Part shown: positions 19,945 through 55,524 of the stretch, piece after piece
Numbering within the stretch: the stretch's first letter is position 1
Layout: every line of letters begins with the position of its first letter
NCBI GenBank assembly: GCA_051313645.2
Contig: JBNRSN020000002.1
Coordinates: 209,374,001-209,438,000 of the forward strand
Length of the DNA stretch: 64,000 nucleotides
Origin: Centroscyllium fabricii
Lineage: Eukaryota
Reading direction: 5' to 3'
Notes under the pieces: generated by a model
Database searches by the model: none
What the model saw: only the letters and a program-made list of their open reading frames with translations
Told to the model about the DNA's origin: nothing
Made by a program: the position numbers and the translations under genes

Positions 19945-22476
19945 TCAAACAGTAAAGTCCCCACTTGGTTGTGGTGCAGCCACCAGCTTCTCCTGAGCAG
20001 TGCTTGGAGTGTCTGACTCTGCAGCGATGATTTCTTCTTGACAAATGGGTTCCTGTGGAATTGTGTCTGTCCTTGGTGGTGACACCACAGATGCACTTGG
20101 ATAACTGGGGGCAACCCTGTCCTCAGCCATTGCCTTTGGAACCTCGATTTCAATTTCCCCTTGTCTGGTAAGTATCTGATCTACATGTCTGCGGACTACC
20201 CTACCATCTCCCTCCCCGACCTTGTATGATACTGGACCTGTCATTGAGTCTATGAAGCCAGGAATCCACTTTGGTCCAAAACTGAAATTCCTGGTAAGGA
20301 CGCATCTCCTTCTCCAAAACATCGGCTCCTTGTTCTTTTGTCATGGTTCTCTTTTTGTTTGATTTGTCTGTTTTCAATTTTCCTTTTTAGGTCTGGGTGG
20401 ACAAGGTCCAAAGTGGAGCAAAGTCTATGACCTAATAACATCTCAGCAGGAGAGAGTTCTGTGGTGGATTGAGGTGTTATTCTGTAGCTGAACAAAACCC
20501 CATGATACTTTGGTTGTTAAACTCCCTTCTGCACTTTTCTTCATCATTTCTTTGAAGGTCTGATGGCTCTCTCTGCAAGTCCATTTGCGGATGGATGATA
20601 TGGAGCTGAGGTCACCTGCACTATACCATTCTTCCTCATGAACTCCTTTATCTCGGTACTCACAAAACAAGTGGCATTGTCACTTACCACGATCTCCGGT
20701 AGCCCTTGATTACTGAAGCTCTGATGCAGGCAGTCTATAGTAGTAGTGGAGGAAGCAGAATTAACAAGATAAACTTCCATCCATATGGAATGTGCATCAA
20801 TGATTATGAGGAACATCTTCCCCATGAATGGACCCGCATAATCTAAGTGCAATCTTCTCCATGGTTTATCCGGCCACTCCCATGGGTGGAGAGGAGCTGC
20901 TACTGGTGCCTTCCTGTGTACCTGACAAGTGCTGCATGTCTTGACTAGATTTTCTATCTGCTCATCTAGCTTTGGCCACCACAAGTAACTCCAAGCCAAG
21001 GCTTTCATATGCGAGACCCCAGGAGGACACTGATGTAGTTGCTTTAGGATAAACTGTCATGCTGGCTATGGAATAACCACTTGTGCTCCCCGCAACACGC
21101 AACCATCCTGCACACTTGGCTCTGTTTTCCTGACACTGTAGGGTGTGAAGTCAGTCCCTTCCGGATGCTGTGGCCATCCCCTCACCACATATTCTCGAAC
21201 TCTAGACAGTACTGGATCTTTACCTGTCCATGTTCTTACTTGTTCTGCAGTCACCAGTGCCATGTCAGTGTCCCCCAACATCAAAACTCTGTCCTCTGGA
21301 GCTGCCTGGATAGGTGTGCCTGGCAGTGGAAGACGGCTCAAGGCATCTGCGTTCCCATGGTACTTGCCCACCTTGTAGACGATGACATATTCATATGCCC
21401 TCAATGTCACTGCCCACCTCTGGATCCGGGGTGACACCATCTGTGGAACTGCTTTCATTTCATTGAAAAGAGAGATAACAGGTTTATGATTGGTGCATAT
21501 TATGAATTTCCTGCCATGGAACCTCCCAAACATTACTGCTAACCCCTCTTTCTCTAACTGGTAATAGTTTTTTTCCGCTGGCGTTAGGGTTCGTGACATG
21601 AACCCCCAATTGGTCTTTCAGTTCCATCTTCCATGCGGTGTGAAATAACTGCTCCCACCCCGTAAGGTGAAGCATCACGAGAGAGAATGATGTCTTTCTC
21701 TTCATTGAACCAGCACATCTGCCGACAGCATCAGTTTCTTGGACTGTTCAAATGAAACCCTCTGCTCCTCTCCCCACTGCCACTGTGTCTCCTTGAACAG
21801 TAGTTTGTGAAGAGGTGCTAACACTGTTGACAATTTTGTCAAAAACCTGTTATAATAGTTCAGAGTCCCAGGTAGGCCTTTAAGTCAGCTACATTTGTAG
21901 GAGCAGGGGCTTCCTGGAGTGCTTGTACTTTCTCCTTGATTGGGTGGAGCCCGGTGGTGTCCACTCTATATCCCAGGAGCACTGCCTCCTTCCCAGGAAA
22001 GTGCACTTACTCCTCTTGAGCCATAAACCTGCATTCTCTAATCTCTGTAGTACCTCTCTCAGAGTGCTCAGATGCTCCTGGTCAGTTCTTCCTATCACCA
22101 GAATGTCATCCAGATAGATGGAAACATGTGGAATTCCTTGCAGTACACCTTCAATTGTCCTCTGGAAGATAGCTGGACTAGATGAGACACCAAACGGTAA
22201 GCGGTTATATGTAAAGAAGCCCTTATGGGTATATAAGGTAACATACTTCTTCGATTCGTCATCCAGTGTAATCTGCAAGTATGCATGACTCATATCCAAC
22301 TTTGTGAATTTCTTTCCTCCGGCTAGGTTTACAAAGAGATCCTCTATTTTAGGAATCGGATACTGCTCTAGTTTGGACACCCGATTGACTGTCAATTTAT
22401 AATCTCCGCAGAGCCTTACCGAATTGTCCAGTTTTAGAACAGTTACTATGGGAGCTGCCCATTCTGAACATTTCAC
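19945..22476 (-). pseudogene. pol: Gypsy Pol (RT, RNase H, integrase), frameshifted
   Basis: VRLCGDYK, YNRLPFGVSSSPAIFQ, IYLDDILV; YYQLEKEGLAV, NADALSRLP; CSTCQ, RLHLDYAGP, VSDNA, NGLAER. Confidence 0.9.
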
Positions 22477-22659
22477 TGGTTCCAGTATGTTCTCTCACAA
22501 TAGATGGTCAAGTTCAACCTCTACCTTTGGTTTCATGGCATAAGGCACAGGTCGTTGTTTAATAAACATTGGCAGTGCCTCCTTGTCTACATAAATCTTA
22601 GCTTGTGCCAAGTTCCTCCTTCAATACATTCTCATATTCCCTCAACACTTCTTGCAAGG

Positions 22660-23718
22660 TCACTGTTTGCCTTCATCTATTTGATTTACTGCTCCCCAGT
22701 TCAATTTAAGAACTTTTATCCAGCCCCGACCTAACAGGTTTGGTCCGGTACCCGATACTATAACTACAGGTAACTGTTCCACTGTGTCCCTGTGTTGCAC
22801 CGTTACATTAGTTACACCTAATGTTGCTACACGTTCACCTGTATATGTTTTAAGATGCAGAGAGCAAGACTTTAACTCTGGAATTTTTGCACGGTTACCC
22901 AATTTTGAGTACTCTGCCCTGTTCATTATGGTTACCACACACCCTGTATCAATTTCAAAGTTCACCTTAGCATCATTTACTGTCAGTTGCAATGTGATAG
23001 GAGCCACTTTTGGGATGTTCTCTAACATTGTGAACATGTCCTCTTCTTCCTCAGCTTCCCCGCTGATGTGGTGTGCTCCATGTTTTTTCACTTCTCCTCT
23101 TAGGTTTTTCTCCACAGGTGATTTTGCCCGACATGCTTGTTTTATGTGTCCTTGTTTCCCACACTTGTGGCACTTTTCCTCCCGAAACCTGCATTTACTC
23201 GCTAGGTGATCACCCTCGCATCTATAACATGCCTTTACATGCTCCCATTGTGGTTTCTGACGCATGTTTAACTTGTACACAATAGCTTGACCTGTGACTT
23301 GCCTAGCATTAGACTTGTCTGAACCCTGTATTTCTTTTACATCTCGGTTCGCTGTCTCTAAGGCTTGAGCAAGTTCCAATGCTTTTTCATTTGTAAGCCC
23401 AGTCTCGGATAATAATCTACGCTGTATTTGGTCATCCATTATTCCGCAGATCAGCCTATCTCTCAGCATTTCCTTCAGGTTGTTTCCATAATTGCAATCT
23501 TGTGCTAATTTGCACAACGCTGCTGCATAGTCCATTACACTCTCTTCCTCTTTCCTGTTCCTTGAATTAAACTTGAACCGCTGTACAATTTCACTTGGCT
23601 TAGGGTTGAAATGCTCTTTTAGCAAAGCCACTAATTCAACCATTGATTTGTCACCAGGCTTTTCAGGACTGAGAAGATTCTTCAGCAAACTATAGGTCTG
23701 GCTTCCCACAGAACTCAA
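22660..23718 (-). pseudogene. gag: Gypsy Gag (zinc-knuckle region) plus aspartic protease
   Basis: LRDRLICGI, CYRCEGDHLASKC, CHKCGKQGHIKQAC, FEIDTGCVVT, LLGRGWI. Confidence 0.9.
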
Positions 23719-24068
23719 TAGGATAGCTTTCCTTTTTCCAGGATCACTTATTTAATATGCCTCAAAGAAATAACCCAACACTTCACAGTATTCCTCCCAG
23801 GTTTGTGTTTGAATATCAAAAGCGTAGACCATTCCTACCTTGGCAGCCATGCTCGCGTCCAAATTGCAGCGACTTTAGCTCGTGAGTTTGTTATTTCTTT
23901 TTTCTTTCTTTTCCAAAAGTCCTGTTTGACTTTTTTTCGTTCTTCTGGGTTCTTTTTTATCTCATCGCCAGATGTGATAACCCCGATAGCGAAAGCAGGA
24001 CTCAAAGAGGCATTAAACAGTAACAAAATGAGTGCTTTTATTCTCTGGCTGTACAGCTTAAAATACAA

Positions 24069-31840: not shown

Positions 31841-32173
31841 TGACGTATCGTCAATCAAATGCAAAAGACAAGTAGTTACCCAAATTATAGGCTTTTATTC
31901 ACTAACAATGGAGCTGGTCTCCTGTTGAGTTCAAGGCGAGAGTGAGCGGGGGCAGGGCAGCCCTCACCTATATGCTCCGACCTGAGGGGAGGAGTTAGGG
32001 GTGTGGCTGACCTGGCTTAACATACAATATCAAGGTGAGCACATCAACTATATACAATGGTAATACACGGTTACCACATTCACCCCTTCTTTAAAAACAA
32101 GTCCGGCGGGGTGAACGTGCCTTCTCTTGAGAGGAAGAGAGAGAAAAAAGCTCAATATGTCCATTAGACGCAA

Positions 32174-33181
32174 TCAGCATTGCGTTATTAGTCTCTCCGG
32201 CAGTCGCGTCTGCCTGGGGGACCGCCGGGGTGCCGGTAATGGTGGTGCCGGTTGCAGGGCCGGGATCGAGCTCACCGCCAACGGTGCCAGCGGTGCAGTG
32301 TCCGATCCCGGGTCATCGATCAGTGGTGTTGAGGGCCCCGGTGTGTGTATGTATGGGGGCCAGTATTCGGTGGGTGGTGGCTGGTCGGGCTGAGGCTCGA
32401 CCGGGGGTTCTGCCCTAGTGCTCCCGGAGGGCGCCAGGTCCCTGATCGAGACTGTATCCTCGCGCCCGTCCGGGAATGTCACGTAAGCGTATTGCGGGTT
32501 GGCGTGGAGCAGGTGCACCCGTTCCACCAGGGGGTCGGTTTTGTGGCCGCGGACGTGTTTCCTAAGCAACAAAGGCCCCTGTGCTGTGAGCCACAGCGGC
32601 AGTGCTGTCCCCGAAGTCGACTTCCTGGGGAAGGAAAACAACAGGTCATGAGGTGTTGAGTTAGTGGTGGTACACAACAGAGAGCGAATGGCATGGAGCG
32701 CATCTGGGAGGACCTCCTGCCAATGGGAAACTGGAAGGCCTCTGGACTTCAGGCCCAGGTTGACCGCCTTCCAGATGGTCCTGTTCTCCCTTTCTACCTG
32801 GCCATTCCCCCGGGGGTTGAAACTGCTCGTTCTACTTGAGGCAACCCCTTTCTGAAGCAGAAACTGATGCAGCTCGTCGCTCATGAACGACGACCCCCGG
32901 TCGCTATGGATGTAGCTGGGGAGACCGAAAATGGCGAACAGCGTGGTGAAGTGTTTGATCACCGTTGCGCTCATCATGTCTGGGCAGGGGAAGGCAAAGG
33001 GGAAGCGTGAGAACTCGTCTATGACCGTGAGGAAATACGAGTTGCGGTCAGTGGAGGGAAGGGGGCCTTTGAAGTCCACGCTCAGGCGTTCAAAGGGGCG
33101 GGTGGCCTTGATGACGTGCGCCGTTTCTGGCCTGTAGAATTGGGGTTTGCACTCATCACAGACAGGGCACTCTTTGGTCAT
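32174..33181 (-). CDS. Gypsy integrase (335-aa open frame)
   Basis: CPVC, RLSVDFKGP, IDEFSRF, IHSDRGSSF, GNGQVEREN. Confidence 0.9.
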   Translation of the reverse strand: MTKECPVCDECKPQFYRPETAHVIKATRPFERLSVDFKGPLPSTDRNSYFLTVIDEFSRFPFAFPCPDMMSATVIKHFTTLFAIFGLPSYIHSDRGSSFMSDELHQFLLQKGVASSRTSSFNPRGNGQVERENRTIWKAVNLGLKSRGLPVSHWQEVLPDALHAIRSLLCTTTNSTPHDLLFSFPRKSTSGTALPLWLTAQGPLLLRKHVRGHKTDPLVERVHLLHANPQYAYVTFPDGREDTVSIRDLAPSGSTRAEPPVEPQPDQPPPTEYWPPYIHTPGPSTPLIDDPGSDTAPLAPLAVSSIPALQPAPPLPAPRRSPRQTRLPERLITQC

Positions 33182-33286
33182 AGCCTTTATCTCCGTGATG
33201 AGTAGGGGAGGCTATGGGATTTGACGAAGTGGGCGAGTCTGGTGACACCCGAGTGGCAGAGACGATCGTGGAGGGCCTTCAGCCAG

Positions 33287-35242
33287 TCAAGCTGGGCGCT
33301 GGCGCACGTTCCCCTGGACAGTGCGTCCGGGGTTCGTTGAGTTTGCCTGGACGGTAAAGAATGTCGTACTCGTAAGTCGAGAGTTCAATCCGCCACCGCA
33401 GGATCTTATCATTCTTGATCTTACCCCGTTGTTTATTATTAAACATAAACGCCACCGACCGTTGTCAGTGAGCAGGGTAAAATGCTTACCAGCCAGGTAA
33501 TGACGCCAGTAGCGCACTGCCTCCACGATGGCCTGGGTCTCCTGTTCCACCGCTGAGTGGCGAGTTTCGGGTCCCTGTAAGGTCCTGGAGAAAAACGCTA
33601 CGGGCCTGCCTGCCTGGTTCAGGGTGGTGGCAAGGGCGAAGTCTGAAGCGTCACTCTCCACCTGGAAGGGGATGGACTCATCAACGGCGTGCATGGTCGC
33701 CTTGATGATGTCATCCTTGATCCGAGCGAATGCCGTTTGGGCTTTTTCCGAGAGGGGGAAGACGTTGGCCTTGAGGAGAGGTCTGGACTTATCCGCGTAC
33801 TGGGGGACCCATTGCGCGTAATAAGAAAAGAACCCTAGACATCTCCTCAGGGCTTTGGGGTTGTGAGGTAAGGGCAGCTCTTGCAAGGGGCACATACGCT
33901 GTGGGTCAGGGCCGAGGACCCCGTTTTCCACCACGTATCCGAGGATAGCGAGCCGATCCGGACTAAAGATGCACTTGTCTTTATTGTACGTTAGGTCCAG
34001 CCGTTTTGCCATGTGCAGGAATTTGGCGAGGTTGGTATTGTGGTCCTGCTGGTCATGGCCGCAGATGGTCACGTTGTCCAAGTAGGGAAAGGTGGCCTGC
34101 AACCCGTTCTGGTCAACCATACGGTCCATCTCCCTCTGGAACACCGACACCCCGTTGGTCACACCGAAGGGGACCCGGAGGAAGTGGTAGAGCCGGCCGT
34201 TCGCCTCGAAGGCGGTGTACTGGTGGTCGGATTTCCGGATGGGGAGTTGGTGATACGCCGACTTGAGGTCGATTGTGGAAAAGACCTTGCACTGGGCGAT
34301 CTGGTTTACCATATCCGAGATGCGGGGGAGGGGGTAGGCGTCAAGCCCGGTGTAGTGGTTAATCGTCTGGCTATAGTCGATGACCATGAGCAGTTTCTCG
34401 CCCGTCTTAACCACTATGACCTGGGCCCACCAGGGGCTGGTGCTGGCCTCAATTATCCCTTCATTCAGCATGCGCCCGACCTCCGACCTGATGAACGCCC
34501 GGTCCCCTGCACTGTAACGCCGACTTTTGGTAGCAATGGGCTTGCATTTAGGCTTGAGATTAGCGAACAGTGAGGGGGGGTCGACTTTTAATGTGGACAG
34601 GCCGCAAGTCGAGCTCTGCGTCATGTTGGGAGTGTCCCGGCTACTGACAGTGAGGGGGGCCAGGGTTCCACCAAAATCGATCGTCACGCTCTTCAGGTGA
34701 CACTGGAAATCCAGTCCCAGTAAGACTGGGGCGCACAGCTGCTGGAATACGTACAACTTAAAGTTGCGGTAAATGCAGTCCCTGATCGTGAGCGTGATGC
34801 TGCAGTAGCCGGTGACGTCCGCTGTGTGGGACTTTGAGGCAAGGGAGACTTGGTAGTGCGTGGGCTGGGTCTGCAGTGTGTCGCTCCGCACTGTGTCGGG
34901 ATATATGAAGCTCTCTGTGCTGCCGGTGTCGAACAGGCAGTTACTGGCGTGCCCGTCCACCTTAATCCCCATCATCGAGTTGGACAAGGTGTGCGGCCTA
35001 GCCTGATCGACGGTGGCTGAGGCCGAAGTGTATGTGTGTGAGTGGGGGCCCTCCGCTAGCTGGGGCCCCGGCCGGGGCAGTTGGCAAGATGGCCGCTCAG
35101 AAGATGGTGGCGCTGGCGATGCGCCTGTATCCGGCTGCTGTGGACAAGATGGCGGCACCCGTGGTTCGCACGCGGCCCACTGCTGTGGATATGATGGCGG
35201 TGCCCGTGGTTCGCACGCGGCCGACAAGATGGCGGCGCCCAT
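33287..35242 (-). CDS. pol: Gypsy Pol: protease, RT and RNase H (651-aa open frame, frameshifted near its end)
   Basis: LFDTGSTESF, IDLKSAYHQ, VPFGVTNGVSVFQ, YLDN, VESDASDFA, PVAFFSRTL. Confidence 0.9.
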   Translation of the reverse strand: MGAAILSAACEPRAPPSYPQQWAACEPRVPPSCPQQPDTGASPAPPSSERPSCQLPRPGPQLAEGPHSHTYTSASATVDQARPHTLSNSMMGIKVDGHASNCLFDTGSTESFIYPDTVRSDTLQTQPTHYQVSLASKSHTADVTGYCSITLTIRDCIYRNFKLYVFQQLCAPVLLGLDFQCHLKSVTIDFGGTLAPLTVSSRDTPNMTQSSTCGLSTLKVDPPSLFANLKPKCKPIATKSRRYSAGDRAFIRSEVGRMLNEGIIEASTSPWWAQVIVVKTGEKLLMVIDYSQTINHYTGLDAYPLPRISDMVNQIAQCKVFSTIDLKSAYHQLPIRKSDHQYTAFEANGRLYHFLRVPFGVTNGVSVFQREMDRMVDQNGLQATFPYLDNVTICGHDQQDHNTNLAKFLHMAKRLDLTYNKDKCIFSPDRLAILGYVVENGVLGPDPQRMCPLQELPLPHNPKALRRCLGFFSYYAQWVPQYADKSRPLLKANVFPLSEKAQTAFARIKDDIIKATMHAVDESIPFQVESDASDFALATTLNQAGRPVAFFSRTLQGPETRHSAVEQETQAIVEAVRYWRHYLAGKHFTLLTDNGRWRLCLIINNGVRSRMIRSCGGGLNSRLTSTTFFTVQANSTNPGRTVQGNVRQRPA

Positions 35243-35435
35243 GGTTCACACGCGGCCGACTGCAGTGGACAATATGGCGGCGTCGGGAGGTCGCACATGG
35301 CCGACCGCTGAGTATAAGATGGCGTCGCCCGTGGTTCGCACGCGGCCGACCGCGGTGGACAAGATGGCGGCGCCAGGGGGTCGCATATGGCCGACCGCTG
35401 TCAATAAGATGGCGGCGCCGGGGGGTCGCACATGG
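35086..35435. repeat. ~45-bp tandem repeat array between Gag and protease
   Basis: Repeated aagatggcggcgcccgtggttcgcacgcggccgaccgc.gtggac units. Confidence 0.9.
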
Positions 35436-36383
35436 CCGGTCGCGGTCGCGTTTGGAGTGCAGCGCCTGTGCCGCGCGCGCGGCCGGCCTCCGCCGTACAG
35501 TTAAAAGGGATTGAGGCACCCGCGTTTTACCCCCGGCTGACCGCTGCTGGGTCGCGCTGCAACACTGTACCTGGAGCCATGGAGTGGCATCGCTGTTCTC
35601 ACAGGCCGTGCTGTTGTGTCTGGAGGTGGAGGCTGGGCTGGACTTGCACACCTTTGCGTAGTGCCCCTTCTTCGCGCACCGCTCGCAGGTCGCATTCATC
35701 GCGGGGCACTACGCCCGCGGGTGCTTCCCTTGGCCGCAGAAGTAGCATCTGTGCCCTGCCGGTGTCTTCGCAGCCACCGCTGCCATCGTGGGGTTCTCGG
35801 CCTGTCACTGTGTCGCCCAGGGGTCAGGGGTAACGTGTGAGCCATGGTCTCCGTACGCCTCCAGCTTTCGGAGCGCTCCGTCCACCGCATTAGAGAGGGT
35901 TATTGCAGACTCGAGCGACAGTGTGCCCTTCTCCAGCAGCCGCTGGCGGGCCTGGCTGGACCTGAGTCCAGCCACATAGGCATCCCAGATTAGGAGGTTC
36001 GCTTCTTCCTCCACCTTCCTTGCCTGGCAGTCGCAGGCCCGTGCGAGGTCTTGAAGCGCTAGTAGGAACTGTTCGTTAGATTCACCGAGTCGTTGTCTTC
36101 TGGTCGCCAGAACATGCCTGGCATAGACCGAGTGGGCTGGGCACATGTAGCAGTTCTTTAGTTTCTTAATCGCTTCCTCGTAAGTCTTGAGGCCGCGGAT
36201 AAAAGAATACACCCGGCCGCTGATCCGTGATGAGATTACCTGGAGTTTGTCCTCATCACTCGTAGCCTTTACGGCCTTCATGTAGGCCTCGACCAGGCCA
36301 AACCAGTGTTCGAAGTTGTTAGCAGCATCGGGTGCCTGAGGATTTATGTCGAGGCGATCTGGTTTCACTGCGTTACTCTCCAA
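35097..36383 (-). pseudogene. gag: Gypsy Gag (frameshifted) with a CCHC knuckle
   Basis: KPDRLDINPQA..EHW, YARHVLATRRQ..GES, RQRLLE; CERCAKKGHYAKVC. Confidence 0.85.
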
Positions 36384-37227
36384 GTTTTAAAATTTTTGAA
36401 TAAAATTGACGTATCGACAATCAAATGCAAAAGACGAGTAGTTACCCAAACTATAGGCTTTTATTCACTAACAATGGAGCTGGTCTCCTGTTGAGTTCAA
36501 GGCGAGAGTGAGCGGGGGCAGGGCAGCCCTCACCTATATGCTCCGACCTGAGGGGAGGAGTTAGGGGTGTGGCTGACTTGGCCTAACATACAATATCAAG
36601 GTGAGCACATCAACTATATACAATGGTAAGGTGAGCACATCAACTGTATACAATGGTAATACATGGTTACCACATGCACTACCAGAGCTAGTAATTGAAA
36701 CATGTCAACACTTAAGAATAGATTCGATAGATGGTTAAAAGTAAGGGGAATAAAGAGATTTGGGAGCAGAGCAGGCATAGCAGGTTACGATTACTGCTCC
36801 TGTGGAGCTCCAACATAGATCAGTTGGGTCGAATGGCCTGTTTCTGTGTTGTAATTTTCATGCAATTCTATGCAGTACTGAGCCATATAGAACAGAAGAT
36901 CCTCGGCTGTATCTCCAAACTATTCTGAGTTGGTTGATATCGGGGGCAGCAATTTGTGTGTTCCAATTGGCTTCAGATGCCCTCGTCTAGGTGAACCAGG
37001 TTTCCTGTTCATGAATGCTGCCCCGTTACTTATCTGGAAAAGTGCATGCGACAGAAATTCAATGGCACCACACCCACTTTCCAGCACAAAATGTAAACCT
37101 ATGCATCACATATGGCGGGTGAGAAGTGTGCGCTCATTATGGGCCGGTAGTGCACCACCCACCATATTGGATTGGGCTGCTCCGTAGGCATCCAGGGTGC
37201 CCGCCAGAACTATTAAAATGGCTAATT

Positions 37228-38279
37228 TGTAAGGGAATGGTAATGGATCTGGTGAGCGGGGCCCAAATGCAGAAACACTGAGAAACCGTCTTGATACAAA
37301 AACCCCTTTAATCTAACAAAACATGTTTGAATAAGACATACAATACTAGACACAAGTCTTTGACTAAAGACAGGCACATACTTTAACGTTATTATTAAAA
37401 CCCTAGAGGCAGAATATTAACAAGTCCTCTTCCGAACCGGACAGGCTTTCTACTGGGCGTGGAACCCTTTAAACCGACCACAACCCCAGAGAGGTACAAG
37501 CCTTAGTGGAACCTGTTATCATGACCACTTCCATCAGAGAGGAACAAGTTCTACGCAGCCAAGTAGTAGAGTAGCTAACATACAACAGGGCCTAATAACA
37601 ACAGATAATGAACAGTCCAATTATGAAGGTAGAATGCAATGATGTCCAGCTCCTCTGTTCCACCACAGAGACTTAACCCCATGGTAACAGGCAGGAAAGA
37701 TAATTCCTGATCTTCCTAACAGATGTCCAAACCTCGGTTCGGGTGAATTAAGCCAATGTCCAAGGAGTAGAAATGGGTCCGACCTACTTCTTCTGCTCCA
37801 CCACGGAGACTTAACCCCATGGCATCAGGCAGTAGCGCACCAGGTCTACTGGCAGGGGAACTCCCTTACCCAACAGATGAGTGTCCATGTCTGAGTCCCA
37901 GATAGCAGGGTACTATGTCAAGATGGAGTGATGTGGGCTCGGTCCCATAGTCCCTCTTAAGGCGGCTCAGAGAAGCAGAGCAAATCCCTTCTGCTTCTTT
38001 TCCATCCAGTGAAGTGTGATATCATAGAAGGTCCTGCAATGATCCCGCAACCTGTCTGGTCAAACCATCAGCTTATAAACCCAAACCAGCCTAATCAGAT
38101 GATTGATGTTGACCAATCAGGGTGCAGGCATATACAAACAGAAAACACCTGTGGTGAACAACCCAATTGATACACTTAACCCACACATAGAACAACACTT
38201 AGAACCAAAATGGGAACATTAAAGGGATATGCCCAAATAAAACATGGATGCCTTAAAGGGGGCATGCCAAACTGTGACA
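37228..38279 (-). mobile_element. Solo LTR (family shared with 51493-52507)
   Basis: TGTAA...TGACA; TSD TAATT; patchy homology to the reverse complement of 51493-52507. Confidence 0.8.
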
Positions 38280-44646: not shown

Positions 44647-44945
44647 TGTAATGTTGTCGATTACTCCAATTAAAGGCGACAAGTATATACCGAAACTAAA
44701 AGGCTTTTAATTGCTAAATAATGGAGCTACTCTCCCAACGAATAACTGTACAGAACTGGGTGGAGCCCCGGTCAGACCACACCTATATAGAGCCCCACAA
44801 GGGGAGGAGTCAGGGGTGTGGCTGACCTGGCTCCCAACAAGATTACAGTAAACTGGGCTGTGCTTAACATCAGCTCAGCCCACAATCAGTCATGGCAATA
44901 CATAGGAACAACTGTGGAATACAGTGGAACAGAACGGTTACCACA
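44647..44945 (-). mobile_element. Solo LTR related to the 31841-36674 LTRs
   Basis: TG..ggttaccaCA; TSD CTGTA; shared ggggaggagt.aggggtgtggctgacctggc. Confidence 0.9.
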
Positions 44946-45528
44946 CTGTATAAAACACTAGATAGGCCACAGCTAGAATACTGTGTGCAGTTCTGGTCAC
45001 CACATTACAGAAAAGATGTGATTGCACTAGAGAGGGTACAGAGGAGATTTTTGAGGATGTTGCCAGAATTGAAGAATTTTAGCTATGAGGAAAGATTGGA
45101 TAGGCTGGGTTGTTTTCTTTGGTGCAGAGGAGGCTGATGGGGAGACTTGATTGAAGTGTATAAAATTCTAAGGGGCCTAGATAGAGTGGATAGGAAGGAA
45201 TTAGTTCCCCTAGCAGAGAGGTCAACAACCAGGGGGCATAGATTTAAAGTAATTCATCAAAGGATTAGAGGGAAGTTGAGGAGAACTTATTTCACCCAGA
45301 GGGTGGCGAGGGTCTGGAACTCACTCCCTGAAAGGATGGGAGAGGCAGAAACCCTTATCACATTTAAAAAGTACTTGGCTGTGCACTTGAAGTGCTGTAA
45401 CCTACAGAGCTACAGGTCAAGTGCTGGAAAGTGGGATTAGGCTGGATAGCCCTTTTTCGGCTGGTACAGACACAATGGGCTGAATGGCCTCCTTCTGTGC
45501 TGTAAATTTCAATGATTTCTATGATTCT

Positions 45529-46556
45529 GTGACTCCTGTCAGGAACCCAGGCACAGCTGCATTGATGGCATACAACGAGAGCCATGCTGCCACTGGGAAC
45601 ATCATCGACTAATCAATCGGCATACTCAAGCAACGCTTTTCACCTCTTTCTAGCGGATTCAGCCCTGCTGAGTTGCTACAAGGCAGGAAACTTCGTACAA
45701 CCGTGCCAACTATGCCATCACTCCTGACCCCAGGCTGGCCCGACCTCCAGAATTTTACAGACAAGGACAAACAATCTAAACTAAGACAACAGGCCAACTT
45801 TAACAGGCACCACAGAGCTAAGCCCTTGTGTCCACTCCTTCCAGGTGACTATGTGTGGATTCAGGACTCCCACAAAAGAGGCATTTTGCAAGGACAGGCA
45901 ATCGCCCCAAGATCGTATCTGGTTGATATCCAGGGCCAGATTGTTCGCAGGAACCGCAGGCACCTCGCACTTACATAGCAGCCCCCTGACGCTTATGAGC
46001 CTTCCATTCCCGATGACTACAATGGGGATGCAAGTCCTGGAACTCTCCCACCCACAGGGGATACTCCACCTCCATCGGGTTCCAGAAAATACCCTGAAAG
46101 GGTCCGCCAGCCTCCTTCATACCTCCAGGACTTTGAAACATGAATAGCTTAAGAACCAAGACACCTCATTGGGTCAGAATAATACCCGAGGTACTTGATG
46201 GAGGGTTCAGGCAGTCGCCTTGTCCCTCCAAGCTTACTCTGCTAGTATTATTCGTGGGTTTTTTTAAATGGAAAGAGAGATGCATTAGAGATGTTATATT
46301 TGTTAGAGTTATTATAATGTTTGTTAGAGTTTGTTATTTCTTAAGCACTGTAAAAAAGTTATGATTTGAAAATGTTGACAGTAAAGGAATATTTTTCAAA
46401 GTATGTTTAGAAAGGGAGATGTGGTGATAGTTACACTCTGCCCAGTAGGGGGGCAATAAAGGGTTAACAGGAAGTGAAATGAGATTAAACAGGGCCTCGA
46501 GCAATGGCTGAACACACACCATCCTGTCTCTGTCTCGATGTGTTGAACACATTACA
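45529..46556 (+). mobile_element. 3' end of a Gypsy element (integrase C-terminus, PPT, 3' LTR 46420-46556)
   Basis: SPAELLQGRKLRTTVP..APRSYLVD..RRNRRHL; PPT agaaagggaga followed by TGT..ACA. Confidence 0.8.
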
Positions 46557-49500
46557 CACGGCACCCTCGGCCGTGGGATCCTGGCACTCCTTCGCACTCC
46601 TGCCCCCACAGGTGGAATGACTGATCCCTCTGTGGGCTCCTCACAGTCCCAGATTATGGGCTGGAGACCCACACCTGTAGCGCCGCTCACCACTCCCTGC
46701 TGTTTCCTCCTCTTATCAGCTCTTTCCCCAGGGTTGAAAAGCTTCGACTGATTGATATGGAACCACTTAGTGTGTCGGGCCATTTTGACCGCATATACCA
46801 TTGGACTCACCTTATCCACGATACTGTATGGTCCCATGTATAGTGGTTCAAAAGTCCCTACCCTGGTGAAGTTTCTAACCATTATTTGATTGCCGACCTC
46901 CCACTCATGGTGCCTCTGAGACTCAAGCAATAAATGATTTCTACGATGTTGCTTCCTCATGTTACTGGCAGCCTGCCAATGGATCTGTCTGAGATACTCA
47001 AGCAAATTCTTAAAGAAACAGTCCCGGTTCACCTCTCTCAACTGACCTGCCGTGAGAACCGGGGCCAGTACATGGCTGGGCGTTCTCATGACCCTGCCAG
47101 TCACGAGCTCATGCAGGGAATACACTGTGCTTCTAGACGGGCTGGCTCAGACCCCCATCAGAACTAACGGCAAGACCTCCGCCCATTTTTTAGGCGAGTC
47201 TCCCGTCTCCTTCCGTAACCTTTCCTTGATGGTCGTATTCATTCGCTCCACAATCCACGATGACTGCGGTTTGTGCCATTTACCCTATCCACCTAGCATT
47301 TTCAGAATCGCCTGCATGACTGCCCCTGTGAAATTACTCTCGAGATCGGACTCCACATACTGCGGTAGCCCCCACCTAGAGAACACTTCTCTCACTAGAA
47401 TCCTTGCGGTCCCCAAAGCTGTGGCTGTTCAGAATGGGAAGGCTTCTACCCATTTCGAGAACTCATCTACCAGGACCAGGCAGTAATTGTAACCCCCCTG
47501 TGTGGTGGGCAGCGGTCTGATATAATCTACCTGTATGGACTGCCATGGTCCCTCCACTCTCCTAATGTGTCCCATGGATACCTTCCTTTTCTGGGGGTCA
47601 GTGTTGTTTGCAGCACACACCAGGCAATCCGCACAGAAGGCGTGGACGTCATCCCTCAGTTGCGGCCACGACCCTGCCTGTTCCACCCGTTGCCAGGTGG
47701 TCTCTGGCCCGGGGTGCCCCGCTCCTGGACCCTCATGGGCCAGCTGAAGGAATTCCCTCCGGTGCTGCTATGGGACTACCTACTGTTCCCCTCTGAAAAC
47801 CATCCCTTCCTTTACTGTAATACCTGCCACTCCGTATGGTCCCTCTACCTTTTCACCCTTAGCCAGCATCTCCAGAACAGTCTTTAGGGCGGGATCCTGT
47901 GCCTGGACCATCTTTAGGTCCAGGGCCAATTCTACCCCTGCACTACCTTGGGTCCCACCTCTGTCTCTGATCGCTGCTACCAGACTCGACCCATATGGAT
48001 CCCAAAACATGCCCGTTCGAGCACCCTCTTTGGCCAGCACGTCGGCCTGCTGATTGCCCTCCACATGGGGTTCTGTCATAGCATGTGCCTTGACTTTGTG
48101 GATATAGAAATCCCCCTGGTTTCCAATCGATGTTATGATCTGTCGCAACAATGGCTTGGTTGCTAGGGGTTTCCCATCTGCAGATGTGAACCCACGACGA
48201 GACTAAATGGCTAAATATTTTGTACACGAATTGCAAGTGAACATGCTGTCCGAGCAAATCATGTAGGGTGTAGGGAACTCTTCGGGGTCGGTAACACTTT
48301 TGCGTGCTGGGCACTCATGGTGCTCAGGAGTTTAATGACCTTGGCAATGCCTGCCTTTGGGTCAAAAATCCCAAATCCAGTGAGTCACTCCCCGGCCACT
48401 ACTGAACTGGACCCGTCTACATAGATCTCACAGCCCGTGGGATGGATCCCAGCCTGAAATCCTATGTCTACGTCCCATACCCCTTCAACAGAACATTTGT
48501 GGGCCACCCCGGGTAGATCAAATTTGTGGTGAGCTTGGGCTCACAGAGGCCTTTCACACTCAAATTCATCTGAGAGAGCAATAAATTCCAGTGAACAATG
48601 CGTGCACTGCTCACCATGCCGTCCTTTATCCTCCCATCCAGAAACACCTGAGTGGGCGTATGGTGGATTAAGCGAGTTACCGGGGAACGCCCCCGTGAAG
48701 ATTTGTGATGTCCTCATGGCCCAATGTGTGGCAAGCAGGTGCCTCTCACAATTGGAGTACCCCCTCTCTACATCTGTGAGGATTCTTGATGAGTATACCG
48801 TAGGCCTCGGCTTGCCATGCCGCTCTTGGAGCAGCACTGCGCTCAAACTATCCCCTGTGGTATCTGCCTCCAAAATGAATTCCTTTCCCCCATCAATCAC
48901 TCCTGAAACCAGTGTTGTCTGCAGATCTCCCTTCAGATGACTAAAAGTTGCCATGCAATCCTCATCCCACTCCCAGCCCACTCCCTTGTGGAGGAGCCGG
49001 ATTAGAGGAGCTGCTATAGTGGCATAGTCCTCTATTAAATCCCTGCATTACCCTGAGTCCCAGGAAGGATTTTACCCCCGTTACCATGGTCAGGGCAGGT
49101 AGCTCCTGTACCGCCTTCCTCCTTGCCTCATCGATGGCTCTCTCCCCAGCACACATGGTCAGCCCGAGGAATTTTACATCCTGTTGGCCGATCTGTGCTT
49201 TCTTGGGATTAACTTTAAACCCATCTTACTTTAACAGACTTAGCAGCTCAGTCAGCAGGGGACCATGCTCCTCTCTCTCGTTGGAGAACAAGAGCAGGTT
49301 GTTCACATACTGCACGAGCTGCTGTGGTCTGCTAAACCCTTTTAAACAGTTGGCCATACATTGGTGAAAAATAGAAGGACTGTTGGGAACCCCTTGGAGA
49401 AGGCAGGTCCATGTGTACTGCTGACCCTTGAAAGTAAATGCGAACTTATACTGGTCCTCACTTTTGAGAGGGATAGACCAGAATCCGTTCTAAATGTCCA

Positions 49501-50372
49501 ACACCGTGAATGTATTCGTGGATGCTGGGATATATCCGATCAGGTCGGCTACGGCTGTGATGGTGGGGGCACAGGCTGGGATGTTCTTGTTGAGAATCTG
49601 ATAGTCCACAGTGGCTGTCCACGAATTGTCTGGTTTCCTAACCGGCCAAATCGGAGAGTTCACATGTGTTGCTATGGGTCTCAACACACCCTGCTCTACC
49701 AGTGATCCCACTGCCATCTCTAAATCCGCCTCTGCCTCTCTGAGGAAGTTGTACTGTTCCTGTGGTTGGGCCATGGGGTCCCCTTCTACTCTGACCTCCA
49801 CCCTTATTACCCTCCCACAGTCGTGCTTGTGTGTAGCAAATGCCGCGAGGTTGGCTTGCAAATCCGCTATGTACTCTGCCAGGGTAGAAGTGACCAAAGG
49901 TTCAAGGTCATAACTACCTTTGGGCTTCATTGTGCACACAGTTCCCTTGCATTGCTTCCCTGGTATAACTACCACCTCCCCCTCCTTTCCCGTGCATACT
50001 ACCCCCAAAGACAGTGATTCCGGAAATCCACCAATATCTTGTGGGCCAGGATGAAGTCTGCCCCCCAAATCCCTATTCCATCCCGCTCCCAATGCATCAG
50101 GACACATTTCCACTCCATATGGAGTGTACCCAGATCGATGGCTAGCGGGATGGAGAAAGACCCAGCCTGTTCGTTCCCAGTGAACCCTGCGAAGTCATGT
50201 GGGACCCCGCTCGATAGAGGTGATGTGGTCGGGTTATCCACATAGACAATGGTGCTTGAAGCTCCAGTGTCCAGCAGATAGGTCTCTTGAACCTACTCCA
50301 CCCCTATTTTCATGCACAGTCTCTTCCAAGCATCATAACTTAGTGGGCACAGGTAAACGGGCTGAGAAGCCC

Positions 50373-50379
50373 CTAGTCA
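50373..50379 (-). promoter_or_regulatory. Gag stop codon in a readthrough context (UGA-CUAG)
   Basis: ...CCA TGA CTA G...; the protease LLDTGAS lies in the same frame downstream. Confidence 0.65.
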
Positions 50380-51492
50380 TGGGTCGGGATTGTTCGGGGT
50401 GGATGGGAATATGCTGCCTGCTGCTGCGTCCACCCTACCCTGCCCTGCCGGAAAGATTGCGTGGAGAGCAGCCACGAATATCACAAATCGATCAGTACTG
50501 CTTCCTGCCACAGCTGCGGCTTTCTGCAATGGCGCTGGAGAATCCCCTTTCCCGCTCCTTTTGTCAGAGACTGGGCAGTCCTTCCTCCAGTGCTCTTTTC
50601 TCCTGCACCTATAACAACCCTGCTTCTTCTCTGAGCTACCTGCTTCCTGGTGCCAATCTCTACTAACGTTGCCTCTGCTAGGCTTTAACTCATATACTCT
50701 GCCCTTTGATTTGTCATCCTGACCCCTACCAGTCTTAAAAGAGAGAGTTAACTGCCTGATCACACTCTCTTCTGTGGTCTGGGGATCCCTGGAATCGAAC
50801 CACCCCTCTGCTTTGGCCTTGATCCTGGGCAGGCTGTTCGCTGCCAGGGTCCTCAGCCAATGAGCCCTAGGCTGTCCCTACAGCTGTGCTCGGTCAGGCA
50901 CCCCTGCACAGGCACTCTGGTAGACGCACCAAAGCCTGTCCAAGAAAGCCTGCGGTGCCTCCCCAGCTGACTGCAGTGTCCTTTCCACCCGGGAGAAGGG
51001 ACTTCCATCATTGAGGCCCATACCCTTTAGGATGTCATCCTTTATGCCCTCTAACGTACCCTGCCCCCTCTTGCTACCCACTGAGAGTGACTGGTGGAAC
51101 CTACTATCCAGGGAAAACTAAAGTAATTTGGTTGTCTCAGCTTCATTACAATTATTGATCTGCCCCCACCTGCTCCACATCTGTAAAATGGACAAATGGG
51201 TCCCCTGTGCTGGTTAGTTTGGTCAGATTAAAGACCATTGCCTGCAGCTAGGGTGTTGTATATGGGATCACAAAGTCACTCCGCAGTGCTCCTTGCTCTT
51301 GACCGTCTACGGCGCACCATATTTCCGCTGCCGGACAGGGCACATGGGTCCTGGTCCTGGCACTTCGGGCGGTGATTGAACGTCCTCCTCTGCCTTACAG
51401 TCCTCCTTATCTACCTCCTACTCTTTCTCATCTACCCGGGTCACTCCCTGAGCTATCAAGCAGACCATCCCTTTGGCCTTAGATAGAGCATC

Positions 51493-52507
51493 TGTCACAG
51501 GGGGCCTGTTCCTTTAAATATTAGAAACAGTTTTTACTGTGGTTCCACAGCTGTTTTAGGGAATAGGTTCCCTTGTTATGTAATTAACTGTCAATTTATC
51601 TGTGTATTTGCTAGTTGTGCTCTGCTCTCATTGCCTCGAGATTATTGGCTATATCTTAATGGTGTACTTGCTGGGTTTAGGATATAATCAGGAGGTTGGC
51701 TTGAGAGCAGAGGCGGGATCATTGGATGGTAATGCATCATGGGACTGGATATCTATTTTCATTCTACAGGCCACTGGAAGGAGGTGGTTTTCTGCTGTTG
51801 TGCTGAGTGGCCGTCAGAGGCAAGGAGGTTGGAGATCGACTGACTCAGCTTGTACTTGCACTCTGCTATTTCAGGTGCTCAGGCTGGGTTGCCCAACAGG
51901 GGCATTGGGGTGGAACTCATTTCCCTCCGCCTTGACAGTGCGCCCTGCTATTGGGAACTCAGCAATGGACAACTCATCTGTTGGGTAAGGGAGTCCCCCT
52001 GCCAGTAGACCTGGTGCGCTACTGCCTGATGCCATGGGGTTAAGTCTCTGTGACGGAGCAGAAGAAGTAGGTCGGACCCATTTCTACTACTTGGACATTC
52101 ATTTCTTCATCCGAACCCTGGTTTGGACATTGGTGATCTGGAAGCATAAGCTGTTCCCAAATCCTCTACGTAGAGGGTGGATTGAGATGTCATGCTCGCT
52201 GAGGAGGACTTGCTCGGTTCTCTTTAAGTTGGACAGTTATGCCTGGACTAGTATTCTTTGGGAGAATGGCGCGCTGGATTGCGTGGCACCCCTCTATTCA
52301 TTACTCGCTATGTTGGGAAGTCTGTGCCAGTCTGTTGATAAGACTTGTGTTAAATATGTGTCTTATATAATTGTATTTGTGTCTTAGATAATTGTAGGTT
52401 TATGGTATAATATGATGTTTTAGTAATAAAGGAGTTTAGTTTTATAGACGTTTCAGTGTCTCTGCATTTGGGCCCCGCCTTCATTCCACTAACACCCAAC
52501 CGTTACA
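51493..52507 (+). mobile_element. Solo LTR inserted in the gag of the retrovirus-like element
   Basis: TGTCAC...GTTACA; TSD GCATC; AATAAA at ~52425. Confidence 0.88.
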
Positions 52508-53157
52508 GCATCGGTCAAATTCCAGGTCTGTTCCTGGCAAGGACCATGATTACCCATATCAAATCCTCCAGTGCTGGCGACTCTGTATGCCACCTGAATA
52601 TCCTTCAACTGCTCTCACAGCAACTTTACCTCACTCGACAAGCGAGCGTTCTCCTCCCTAACCACCCTCTTGTTCCCCATTGCCTCAGTTACCTGGCACT
52701 GCTAGAACTCCTTATGGTTAAGGAAGGTTTCCTCCTGGCGTATTTTTCCCTTCTTCTCATCCCTTAGCTCTGTGCATAACCTGCTCCCTACTGCAACCCT
52801 TGCATCTGACTGTACCTCAGACTCCCTGAGCTCTGCCTTTAACTTAGCCACCTGCTTATCTAGCAGTTGCACTTGTCTTTGTAGACAGATGAGCCATATC
52901 ACCTTTTCAGTGCTGCGCCTATGCTCCTTGCCCTCCATCCATTTTGACGCTGCATCCACCAGACGCTCAGCACGCAACAAGCCTGGCACCCACTTCTTAG
53001 TGACGTTAACCTTCTTAAACACATATGAAGAAATCCTTTCCTCCATTTGGGATCTTTCGCCAGAAGTGCTGTCCATGACTGATTTATAGTCCTTTAAGCC
53101 AGGTTCTGCCGCCGGTCGCCAAGAAATGTAAATGGTTTTCACACTCCTTTAACCTGG

Positions 53158-53175
53158 GTCCTGCCGTGGTCGCCA
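53158..53175 (-). promoter_or_regulatory. Primer-binding site, tRNA-Arg type
   Basis: TGGCGACCACGGCAGGAC; from recall, about 17/18 complementary to the vertebrate tRNA-Arg(UCG) 3' end GTCCTGCCGCGGTCG-CCA. Confidence 0.75.
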
Positions 53176-53717
53176 ATAGACATAAGTGGTTTTTGATCCT
53201 AGTCCAATTGCTAGACAGATGGTTCGAATTGCCCCCGCCTTATGAAAGTTCTATACCCAGGGATTATTATTCACAGTGTAAAGGAAAAAACTCATGGACA
53301 GGAATGCTTATGTGAAAAATCAAACTTGTATTTATTTGGTCTAACATACACTAGCTAAAACATGCACTACTAAATGAAATCACTATCCCTGTGGAGAATA
53401 GAATCCAGATTACAATCAACATACATACAATACAAACCTGGGGACTATAACAAGCAGTAATTCCCTATGGTGGACTCTAATTCCACCCCTATCCACGAAT
53501 TACCCAGTTGCATAAACCCCTTCGCCTGGCTGCACCAAATGAAGCTCCCACCCTTGGAATAGCCCAAAAGTTTGACTTCTGAGAGACTATGCTTACCCCC
53601 ACACACAGTTGGTTTTGATCGCTCTGCTCATCGGCTTCTCTGGTACTTCTTGTCAGTTCGATCATGTAGGAGCTGGGAGCGAGAGAGAAAATGGTGGAAA
53701 AGAATCTATCTGTATAG

Positions 53718-53928
53718 TACAATAGCAAAATACTGCAGATGCTGGAAATCCGAAATAACAACAGAAAATGCTGGAAAAGCTCAGCAGGCCAGGCAGCATC
53801 GGTGGAGAGAAATATACAGTCGACGTTTCGGGTTCAGAAAGGGTCCGAACCTGAAACACAACTCTATATTTCTCTCCACCGATGCTGCCTGGCCTGCTGA
53901 GCTTTTCCAGCATTTTCTGTTGTTATTT
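53718..53928. mobile_element. Fold-back Penelope-like terminal insertion
   Basis: ~85-bp inverted arms homologous to the PLE 3' ends at 56780-56899 and 61185-61304; flanked by ctatct(g/t)tatag. Confidence 0.8.
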
Positions 53929-55284
53929 CTATCTTTATAGTGGTCTGCCTGCCCCTATCTTTTCAATTTCAATTTTAAAAACTTTATTGGCATGACAGGA
54001 TACATCCCTATGTTGCCAAAGTATAAAACATAACATACATAGTTAAAATGCATAGATACAGATACAGATACAGGTATACAATGTATGGGCAGATATGCCC
54101 CTGTACGTATATATATATATATATACACACAATACATCTGTAACCTTTTATCGGTTGCTACACGTTCTTGCAGTTACAATCTTTTCCTGGTTATCTTTTC
54201 CTGCCAATCTTTAAAATCCATTTCTTTCTGAGCACTCTGGTGCTTAATCAGTGATGGGTCATCATCGGACCCATGTGTATTTCGTGATTGGATTAATGGC
54301 CCTAAGTCTGAGACATAACTTCGGTCTTTGTGTTGGGAAAAAAAAGCCTGGCTCCCTTATGGCTGGCTGAGGCCAGTGGGTTCATTGTTCTGCTTCTCTT
54401 CTGAGATGGAGGTGAGAAGTGCTTTTGCATATTACAGTGGCCTTTTAATCAAGTTCAATGGCCCCCTTCCTTTTTCCAGGACTGTCGGGCGAACCCATAC
54501 ATTCTGGATGATGGACAGTTCTTTAGTCACAGCCAACTGCCATGCTTTCTCTGGAGTTTTTAACAAACCAGTCTTTCATGTATCTGCACAGGGCGATCCC
54601 ATAACAGGCAAAATACCTTCAGAAAAATCCCATAAAGTCCACAAAAATATTCTTGACTGAGTCCATTCTTCAGCGACTTTGCGATCTCTTCAAGACTGAT
54701 GCCACTTCTTCAACTATATCTAGCATGAGTCACCACACTCTGGGAAGAGAACATTTTAAAATGTGGTGGGTAACTATTATTTTTAACTTGATTTAATAGG
54801 GTAGTGGATTATATAAAGCAATTTAGTGGTTTCGATGACAAGCATAAACACTCCTATGGTTTATATCATCTGAAGCCAATTCTGCTACTGCCTTGTAATT
54901 CTGCATGTAGCTATCTACTGTTCCAGATCTATCTGTCAATACAATAAGAATTCTTGTGTCTGGTGTCCACAGTTCCCACTTCTGAAATGTCACTTTTTTC
55001 ATGTGTATGGAGTGATGAAGTGCCACTTTTGCACATTCTTGCTGGTTGTCTGGTTTCATAAAACCAACCAAAATAAATTTCAGAGATTTCTTTTTCAAAT
55101 TCTTTCTTAAACAATTTACTGTAAAAATAGCTCATTAAAACCTTTACATGGATTAATTCAGAAAACCAAACAAGCATATGAAATAAGAAACCAACAAATC
55201 ATGTTGGAAAAAAGTAACACATTTTCAGATACCATGACAGTTCCCATTCCTAACTGTGTTAATCTTCCACCCCGGGCATTTTTT

Positions 55285-55524
55285 TGAATTCTCAGCCTGA
55301 AGGTTACTCCAAGATTACAAATCATCCTGACTTGGAAATATATCATCGTTCCTTCATCGTCGCTGGGTCAAAATACTGGAACTCCCTCTCTAACAGCACT
55401 GTGACCTCACGGAATGCAACGAATCAAGAAGGCGGCTCACCACCACCTTCTCAAGGATAATTAGGGATGGGCAATAAATGTTGGCCTTGCCAGTGATGCC
55501 CACCTCCCAGGAATGAATAAAAAA
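55285..55524 (+). mobile_element. CR1-clade 3' tail (same family as 2546-4060)
   Basis: tcctgacttggaaatatatc...gggcaataaatg...gaatgaataaaaaa. Confidence 0.75.

Follow-up and report, generated by a model that had tools for sequence, protein, structure and literature searches.

The minus-strand retroelement at 46557..54692 of the window (the whole 64-kb stretch of DNA analysed) combines a Gypsy-type tether with a second RNase H, raising the question of whether it is a lokiretrovirus or Odin relative, or a sister clade of these, as the initial annotation proposed. With a probability of roughly 0.87, it is instead a dead, 3'-truncated endogenous retrovirus (ERV), probably of a cartilaginous fish, whose reverse transcriptase (RT) lies among deep-branching canonical retroviruses and is neither class I nor foamy proper; it likely belongs to 'clade Huo'/class III, broadly understood, a label given by association with SnRV alone. 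As the RT groups with deep-branching frog, coelacanth and fish retroviruses and not with lokiretroviruses, the element is likely a new family of an already known kind of deep ERV.

Anatomy and decay of the element

Coding pieces were translated in frame, with stops written as X, and then scanned with Pfam. The order on the minus strand is 5' LTR, primer-binding site, gag with one CCHC knuckle, in-frame stop, protease, RT, tether, second RNase H and integrase. The protein features first listed (RT, tether, second RNase H, CCHC knuckle, MHR-like motif and Gag N-terminus) were all recovered on this strand from the in-frame pieces by Pfam and by comparison with relatives, the Gag coiled coil as weak matches only. 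Rfam matches and tRNAs predicted by ARAGORN both number zero in the window.

The putative 5' LTR (53177..54692, minus strand) starts with TG at 54692, has an approximate 3' end and contains later insertions. Its outer edge is visible in sequencing depth: in run X1, summed contig depth drops from ~30,000 to 12 at 54692/54693, and a contig of the unique flank ends 30 bases inside the LTR edge. LTR bins are ~10 times deeper than internal bins. The span originally given, 46557..54162, is right at the 3' edge (46556), but the repeat boundary is 54692/54693 and not 54162. No second LTR copy is present in the 64-kb window. A palindromic MITE-like insertion (53718..53929; self-inverted match of 90% over 179 bp) lies inside the LTR and has related copies near 56800 and 61200.

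A primer-binding site exists, as annotated, at 53158..53175 (minus strand), sharing 13 of 18 bases with the SnRV site in L001; its type is presumably tRNA-Arg. The leader holds two primer-site-like repeats, not one: the second (53104..53121, minus strand) lies 54 nt downstream of the first, with ~31 of 40 aligned columns alike by eye.

The gag gene is in two parts. The N-terminal part (52508..53076, minus strand) has two stops and is likely a coiled coil, with weak matches to coiled-coil families (E 0.035 or worse). The second part (50377..51492, minus strand) contains a capsid/MHR-like region, of which the MHR-like stretch can be aligned (E 1e-4) to the Gag part of the coelacanth protein P0012, and a single zf-CCHC knuckle (Pfam, E 3e-4); similarity to SnRV Gag is not detectable. 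Between the parts lies an unrelated plus-strand solo LTR of 1015 bp (51493..52507), bearing TG..CA ends and a 5-bp target duplication, an interruption absent from the initial annotation. It has a relative at ~37250-37930 (88% over 210 bp). Depth over it is 0-4 in run X10 as well as in run X16, and X10 contains a contig joint that passes over the insertion. The second part of gag ends in a TGA in frame with the protease and followed by CTAG, and TGA with CTAG is a known readthrough context.

The aspartyl protease (50002..50376, minus strand; one stop) matches PF00077 at E 0.008, below the Pfam cut-off, and is 54% identical to that of P0008, an intact sister element. The RT (49052..49999, minus strand; PF00078, E 2.7e-27) has two stops and a damaged catalytic motif. 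It is followed by the tether, a Gypsy-type RNase H that has degenerated and is spread over two frames (48531..49047, minus strand; PF17919, E 4e-17; PF17917, E 1e-11). The Pfam matches of the tether cover 48682-49047 while the other frame continues to ~48531, and its closest counterpart among solved structures is the connection domain of MLV (E 1e-5).

The second, retroviral RNase H, which had been placed at 47940-48430, likewise lies in two frames (48020..48438, minus strand; PF00075, E 1e-9). Its C-terminal part (~48020-48271) scores 38.7 bits on PF00075, above the cut-off of 25.8, and its best match among solved RNases H is 2lsn (E 5e-5). On a profile of relatives the domain scores 35 and 93 bits, the 35 bits belonging to the N-terminal part (48301-48438), for which Pfam and PDB gave no match. 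The integrase (46557..47776, minus strand) has an HHCC zinc domain and a core (PF17921, PF00665), and a GPY/F-SH3-type tail with weak matches to PF24626 and PF22938. There is no Pfam match to dUTPase in the element.

At 46556 the provirus is truncated by an unrelated plus-strand Gypsy 3' fragment (45540..46556), consisting of an integrase tail and an LTR (46292-46556) and delimited by its LTR ends; the junction is as first described. The fragment is 43-45% identical to Gypsy integrase tails (E 1e-25), has almost no depth in run X16 and is itself cut by a CR1 LINE. Consistent with the earlier observation that no env is visible, none of 10 env-type queries matches the window at E 0.1; the SnRV Env itself has no fusion-glycoprotein Pfam match.

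These features are consistent with the following history. The provirus would have been transcribed from its LTR, Gag-Pol would have been made by readthrough of the gag TGA stop, and reverse transcription may have been primed on host tRNA-Arg. The family would then have spread to many loci. The window copy would subsequently have gained the solo LTR in gag together with point mutations, and the Gypsy insertion plus a deletion probably removed everything 3' of the integrase.

The element has many related copies, and several related species carry its family in abundance; a host test with a CR1 protein gives weak support for a shark. The family occurs in 20 listed sequencing runs, none of them an RNA run; its share is small in 16 of the 20, among which X5, X10 and X16 had their contigs examined. 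Family loci with downstream DNA were found in neither of two candidate stretches among viral contigs (P0008 as query) nor in any of 597 metagenome contigs, and the contig rows listed, whose contigs are short, include no sequence past the 46556 junction.

Placement of the reverse transcriptase

The RT tree was built from 48 hand-picked rows, which include no ERV-L, ERV4, class II, Odin or fish foamy-like row; it is for this reason that the 'Huo' label depends on SnRV. A mixture-model tree used 33 of these rows, and an RT+tether tree used 35, with P0008 standing in for the window element. Anchors were matched by eye to the supplement of PMC7947760 (P0106 RT, Loki-Lro row; P0118/L001, SnRV row).

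In the 48-row tree, the canonical retroviruses including the window RT form a clade supported at 99/98, whereas lokiretroviruses form a separate branch (100/100), as do Gypsy elements (100/99) and, on a long branch of their own, foamy viruses (100/100). The canonical clade recurs with the window RT under the mixture model (97/92) and with P0008 on RT+tether (100/99), and the tether tree also places the window element within it. The window RT pairs with P0008 (100/100), and the pair joins frog and coelacanth proteins at 90/94, but this latter link vanishes under the mixture model and on RT+tether. The branching order within the deep canonical group is a polytomy in every tree. RT identities to the window element are 68% for P0008, 43-50% for the frog and coelacanth proteins (coelacanth 47%), 40% for SnRV, 31-34% for lokiretroviruses and 32% for foamy viruses. 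These results uphold the claim of a deep lineage, while placing that lineage inside the canonical retroviruses.

The initial proposal, a cartilaginous-fish lokiretrovirus or relative of Odin, has in its favour the dual RNase H, a Gag N-terminus that is coiled-coil-like as is that of zebrafish Bik-1, and the pairwise scores of tether, RNase H and integrase to lokiretroviruses, which exceed those to SnRV; this copy has also lost the region in which the Mononegavirales F-like Env of lokiretroviruses would lie. The layout of tether plus second RNase H is, however, common to all retroviruses and therefore not diagnostic of lokiretroviruses. Union with lokiretroviruses, whose RT clade is sister to the canonical retroviruses, is rejected by the AU test with the window RT (p 0.033 and 0.019) and on RT+tether with P0008 (p 0.0019). 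The RT signature shared by lokiretroviruses and Odin is absent from the window RT, and P0008 has the canonical form. The distance from protease to RT is 168 aa, compared with 125-167 aa across all 14 canonical rows and 520-561 aa in both Loki rows; signature and long spacer are traits seen in the anchors and not part of the published definition. For Odin, whose RT is sister to that of lokiretroviruses, whose host is a sea anemone and which is described without an env, the argument is indirect, as the trees had no Odin row: the window RT is excluded from the Loki side and lacks the signature of the printed Odin rows. Kinship with either group is therefore very improbable.

The description 'spuma-like' holds loosely. 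A foamy-like ERV (clade Tu) would fit the best solved matches of both RT and RNase H, which are foamy, and union with foamy viruses is not rejected on RT alone (AU p 0.135); the ranking of solved matches says little, because closer relatives are absent from the structure bank. Foamy viruses nevertheless keep their own long branch with the window RT outside, in a tree from which fish FLERVs were left out, their RT identity is low, and the window element has a zf-CCHC, whereas spumaviruses are without a CCHC knuckle (PMC8278194). A foamy-like ERV is thus improbable, if slightly less so than a lokiretrovirus.

Least probable of all is independent acquisition of the second RNase H by a Gypsy element. 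Although union of the window RT with Gypsy RT is narrowly not rejected (AU p 0.062) and no env is seen, two branches (100/99 and 99/98) separate the window RT from Gypsy, identity to Gypsy row P0028 is 27%, and the tether groups with retroviral tethers in its own tree. In agreement with the initial annotation, tether plus second RNase H is retrovirus-like and differs from ordinary Gypsy. Union of the window and P0008 pair with SnRV on RT alone is not rejected (AU p 0.26), nor is that of seven rows with SnRV (p 0.41), SnRV lying in a polytomy with deep canonical rows.

RNase H and integrase

The RNase H tree unites the window element with rows from foamy viruses, lokiretroviruses, frogs, coelacanth and turtle (85/91 and 89/93), while SnRV and class I fall elsewhere; in PMC7947760 this group (group I) has lokiretroviruses and foamy viruses as its only listed members. 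RNase H and integrase score higher against lokiretroviruses than against SnRV (224-244 versus 123 bits), and the tether likewise scores higher to lokiretroviruses. The Loki integrase, described as lying near CGIN1, is sister to coelacanth and frog ERV integrases (100/95; 95 under the mixture model), but the window integrase is not sister to that of lokiretroviruses and sits in a polytomy in trees without the CGIN1 row. The AU test rejects neither union of window and Loki integrases (p 0.20) nor monophyly of canonical integrases (p 0.25). Derivation of the Loki integrase from the deep-ERV grade was considered; two trees back it, whereas the AU test does not.

A possible though doubtful refinement of the deep-ERV reading is a distinct, unnamed early canonical lineage of sharks, coelacanth and frogs that would have retained an RNase H of foamy/Loki type together with an integrase of Loki/CGIN1 type, and would stand close to the donor from which lokiretroviruses took their integrase. 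The RNase H grouping, the sister position of the Loki integrase and the 'NYNRIN-like' annotation of relatives are consistent with it. Against it, support for the RNase H grouping is below 95, canonical integrase monophyly stands unrejected, the window's own integrase is not sister to that of lokiretroviruses, and the source papers call RNase H and integrase trees unreliable. Somewhat less probable still is the fuller proposal that this unnamed branch, abundant in several shark and ray species and kin to frog and coelacanth ERVs, joined a canonical RT to an RNase H of the ancestral foamy/Loki type and to an integrase of Loki/CGIN1 type, and that lokiretroviruses (and NYNRIN) took their integrase from it; the branch would then partly bridge the distance from lokiretroviruses to other retroviruses.

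Closest known elements and meaning

The nearest named relatives of this deep ERV are 'NYNRIN-like' Pol proteins of frogs and coelacanth (P0010-P0015; Rhinophrynus, Pyxicephalus, Aquarana, Xenopus tropicalis and Latimeria), which have the same domain order and spacing. The coelacanth protein shows weak Gag similarity, but its Gag part has no zinc-knuckle match, unlike the window gag, and the Pol proteins differ by a long separate branch and a grouping unstable across models. Reading these matches as lokiretroviruses was rejected after comparison with the Loki-Lch, Loki-Xtr and Loki-Rca rows in print, which they do not resemble. SnRV resembles the window element in RT, in having gag and pol in a single frame that one stop interrupts, in a coiled-coil Gag start, in one CCHC and in a similar primer site; it differs in Gag, in an RNase H and integrase that do not group with those of the window element, in a long insert between these two domains, and in a TAG stop where the window element has TGA.

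The zinc knuckle and GPY/F-type tail fit the unclassified SnRV/Ovex1-related ERVs of PMC4299795. ERV-L/XtERV-S (ERV3) and ERV4 (PMC8278194, PMC4299795) are likewise neither class I nor class II, and XtERV-S also has an in-frame gag-pol stop; by description, both are set apart in being without zinc knuckle and GPY/F, and ERV3 in having a dUTPase. Lokiretroviruses and Odin (PMC7947760, PMC9040795) share the tether plus second RNase H, an RNase H of the same broad group and a related integrase, and differ in RT clade, signature and spacer.

Clade Huo/class III ERVs, among them elephant shark CmiERV lineage I, are already recorded from cartilaginous fish (PMC4422223, PMC6001957), the likeness to CmiERV being one of description, not of compared sequences. 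The supplement of PMC7947760 records lokiretroviruses in none of six cartilaginous fish genomes; as a lokiretrovirus, the window element would have filled this stated host gap, which it does not. To identify a lokiretrovirus, tether plus RNase H together with 'NYNRIN-like' matches and a coiled-coil Gag is not enough. With this element, the deep ERVs of cartilaginous fish, a poorly classified set, gain one more family. Among the anchors listed from the published Loki trees, the deep-ERV grade was not found, and the remaining value of the family is phylogenetic: both its RNase H and its integrase are relevant to the domain swaps claimed for early retroviruses.

Pol domains and relatives of the element

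When the pieces of the element were read in frame on the minus strand, with X at stops, and scanned with Pfam, matches were obtained for RT (E 2.7e-27), the tether (PF17919, E 4e-17), the second RNase H (PF00075, 38.7 bits against a cut-off of 25.8), the zinc and core domains of integrase and one CCHC knuckle. The tether, second RNase H and single knuckle of the initial annotation are thus borne out. The whole pol, which reaches down to 46557, aligns in four segments (54–69% identity) with P0008, an intact sister of the element with the same domain set. This copy is dead: 10 stops were counted in the four pol pieces, frame shifts lie near 50.0, 49.05, 48.68, 48.53 and 48.30 kb, and the catalytic motif of RT is damaged. 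In the RNase H at about 48300 (minus strand), one of four acidic catalytic positions is seemingly non-acidic, in the window and P0008 alike.

The RT search yielded 21 proteins, none of them shark-named, of which P0008 was best (67%), followed by 'NYNRIN-like' Pol proteins of frogs, coelacanth and unnamed sources (43–54%, some partial). The frog and coelacanth matches were considered as lokiretroviruses and set aside, as the accessible printed rows of Loki-Lch, Loki-Xtr and Loki-Rca are unlike them by eye. In two frog gene models, P0011 (residues 1190–1331) and P0014 (after residue 560), Pol continues into a signal-peptide-like stretch, with a weak Ig match below the cut-off in the former (E 0.012) and none in the latter; in these relatives, an Ig-headed env may begin with this stretch.

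Placement among retroviruses

As anchors, the Labeo rohita protein P0106 matches the RT printed as Loki-Lro, and P0118 and L001 correspond to the row of snakehead retrovirus (SnRV), both by eye in the available part of the PMC7947760 supplement. Sixteen foamy-type genomes, so labeled from search motif and tree, were added, and every tree was built without Odin, ERV-L, ERV4, class II, fish foamy-like and CGIN1 rows.

Lokiretrovirus membership, as initially proposed, is contradicted by RT. A first tree (FastTree, 92 of 200 rows) placed Loki apart from the group containing the window and SnRV. In an IQ-TREE analysis of 48 chosen rows, canonical retroviruses including the window form one branch (supports 99/98) with Loki outside (100/100); the window pairs with P0008 (100/100), and both join a set of five rows from frogs, coelacanth and unnamed sources (90/94). 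Under a mixture model (33 rows) the canonical branch persisted (97/92) and the order inside it opened up, and RT plus tether, with P0008 standing in for the window (35 rows), gave 100/99. The tether tree, from a quick search, is concordant with RT (support 94). In AU tests, a union with Loki was rejected for RT (p 0.033 and 0.019) and for RT plus tether with the same stand-in (0.0019), but unions with SnRV (0.26), foamy (0.135) and Gypsy (0.062) were not rejected. Kinship with Loki or Odin is also not reflected in characters: the protease-to-RT distance is 168 aa, compared with 125–167 in 14 canonical rows and 520–561 in two Loki rows, and the RT signature common to the Loki and Odin rows in the accessible printed alignment is absent from the element.

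A plain SnRV label is opposed by other regions. The RNase H–integrase piece scores 224–244 bits to Loki versus 123 to SnRV, and the RNase H tree (34 rows) groups the window with foamy, Loki, frog, coelacanth and turtle rows (85/91), with SnRV outside; similarity between the element's Gag and SnRV Gag was not found. The integrase tree (44 rows) gives the window no definite place and makes Loki integrase the sister of coelacanth and frog ERV integrases (100/95; 95 with 27 rows). These results raise the case of an early canonical branch combining canonical RT, foamy/Loki-type RNase H and Loki/CGIN1-type integrase, to which we give low odds, since canonical integrase monophyly is not rejected (AU p 0.25).

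Overall, with a probability of roughly 0.87, the element is not a lokiretrovirus but a dead copy belonging to the deep canonical ERVs, a poorly classified set that cartilaginous fish are already known to carry. In the portions available, published surveys report lokiretroviruses in none of six chondrichthyan genomes (PMC7947760), an elephant shark lineage, CmiERV I, clustering with SnRV (PMC4422223), an SnRV-related clade, Huo, which spans all major vertebrate groups and takes in class III ERVs (PMC6001957), 2,843 clade III RT loci from six chondrichthyan genomes (PMC11089739), and still unclassified ERVs related to SnRV and Ovex1 that have a zinc finger and a GPY/F motif (PMC4299795). Neither a name for the element's family nor a shark lokiretrovirus was found in literature searches and in the accessible text of these and further papers (PMC9040795, PMC12440569, PMC8922424, PMC10435555, PMC9447858, bioRxiv 2024.03.25.586437 and 2023.10.26.564294), a scope outside which lie most subscription papers, Repbase, Dfam and bioRxiv supplements (e.g., the Repbase-based BHIKHARI tree).

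Boundaries, insertions and age

Contigs from 4 of 22 listed public sequencing runs (X1, X5, X10 and X16, source organisms coded) were placed on window positions 44800–55400. An X1 contig identical to the window spans 54663–55350 at depth 10, and summed depth just inside the element is about 30,000; this edge fits an LTR beginning with TG at 54692 rather than the start at 54162 first annotated. The latter is the left edge of another insert of high copy number (about 53940–54162), which lies within the LTR and contains a (TA)n run. Bins inside the element have depths of at least about 1,700 (X1), 9,000 (X10) and 2,300 (X16) versus 12–16 in the flank, and although contig depth is no copy number, by the tool's own warning, this shows that the family is abundant in three or more of the four organisms compared, X5 being shallow.

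Because seven X1 contigs among those listed differ from the window at 34–53 of 286–386 letters (12–15%), and CpG o/e is 0.43 in pol versus 0.85 in a nearby young Gypsy element, this copy is old. An X10 flank contig with 28 differences in 662 extends 327 letters beyond 54693, where it is unlike the element, suggesting an empty site; its low divergence is awkward with respect to the age of the copy, unless the flank is constrained. The single-copy flank (54693–55350) is conserved, at 100%, 96% and 88%, across three of the coded organisms, and contains a 102-aa frame (54823–55131, minus strand) with a weak Band_3_cyto match (E 0.025).

A solo LTR of 1015 bp, bordered by a 5-bp duplication, interrupts gag and is skipped by an X10 contig. 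A related solo LTR lies at about 37250–38270; its family is deep in X1 and X5 and absent from X10 and X16, and thus is likely lineage-specific. At 46556, a plus-strand Gypsy LTR and integrase tail adjoin the element, confirming the replacement of its 3' end noted initially; within the 64-kb window, no second (3') LTR is left and none of 10 env-type queries matches.

The flanks are rich in CR1/L2 LINEs and Gypsy elements. The young Gypsy element (31841–36629, minus strand) has LTRs 98% identical, long ORFs and the CpG o/e of 0.85, and a second one (19945–23751, minus strand) is more degraded, with gag-pol pieces. For a CR1 RT encoded in the window, the best 120 of 725 matches include a Chiloscyllium protein at 65% identity, with lower values for Mobula (55%), coelacanth and turtle (both 54%) and birds (41–53%); these values are consistent with a cartilaginous-fish host, though no proof of one. 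Two CR1-type RT proteins filed under Klebsiella and Proteus (P0269 and P0299; 68–70% to the window LINE) are probably animal DNA inside bacterial records.

Leader, gag stop and proposed expression

The leader contains two primer-site-like repeats, the first of which is identical to the SnRV site at 13 of 18 bases; the primer site is presumably of tRNA-Arg type. The repeats open the two units, each about 54 nt long, of a tandem duplication at 53074–53180 (minus strand).

The gag stop at 50373–50379 (minus strand) is a TGA with CTAG directly after it, which in cellular and alphavirus genes is a context for readthrough, whereas the stop of SnRV is TAG. Gag closes with this one stop, in frame with protease; SnRV likewise has one in-frame stop between gag and protease, as has XtERV-S between gag and pol according to the accessible text of PMC8278194. 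Gag-Pol would be made by readthrough of the gag stop and reverse transcription primed by tRNA-Arg; the family would then have been amplified to many loci, and this copy would afterwards have decayed through insertions, mutation and 3' loss.
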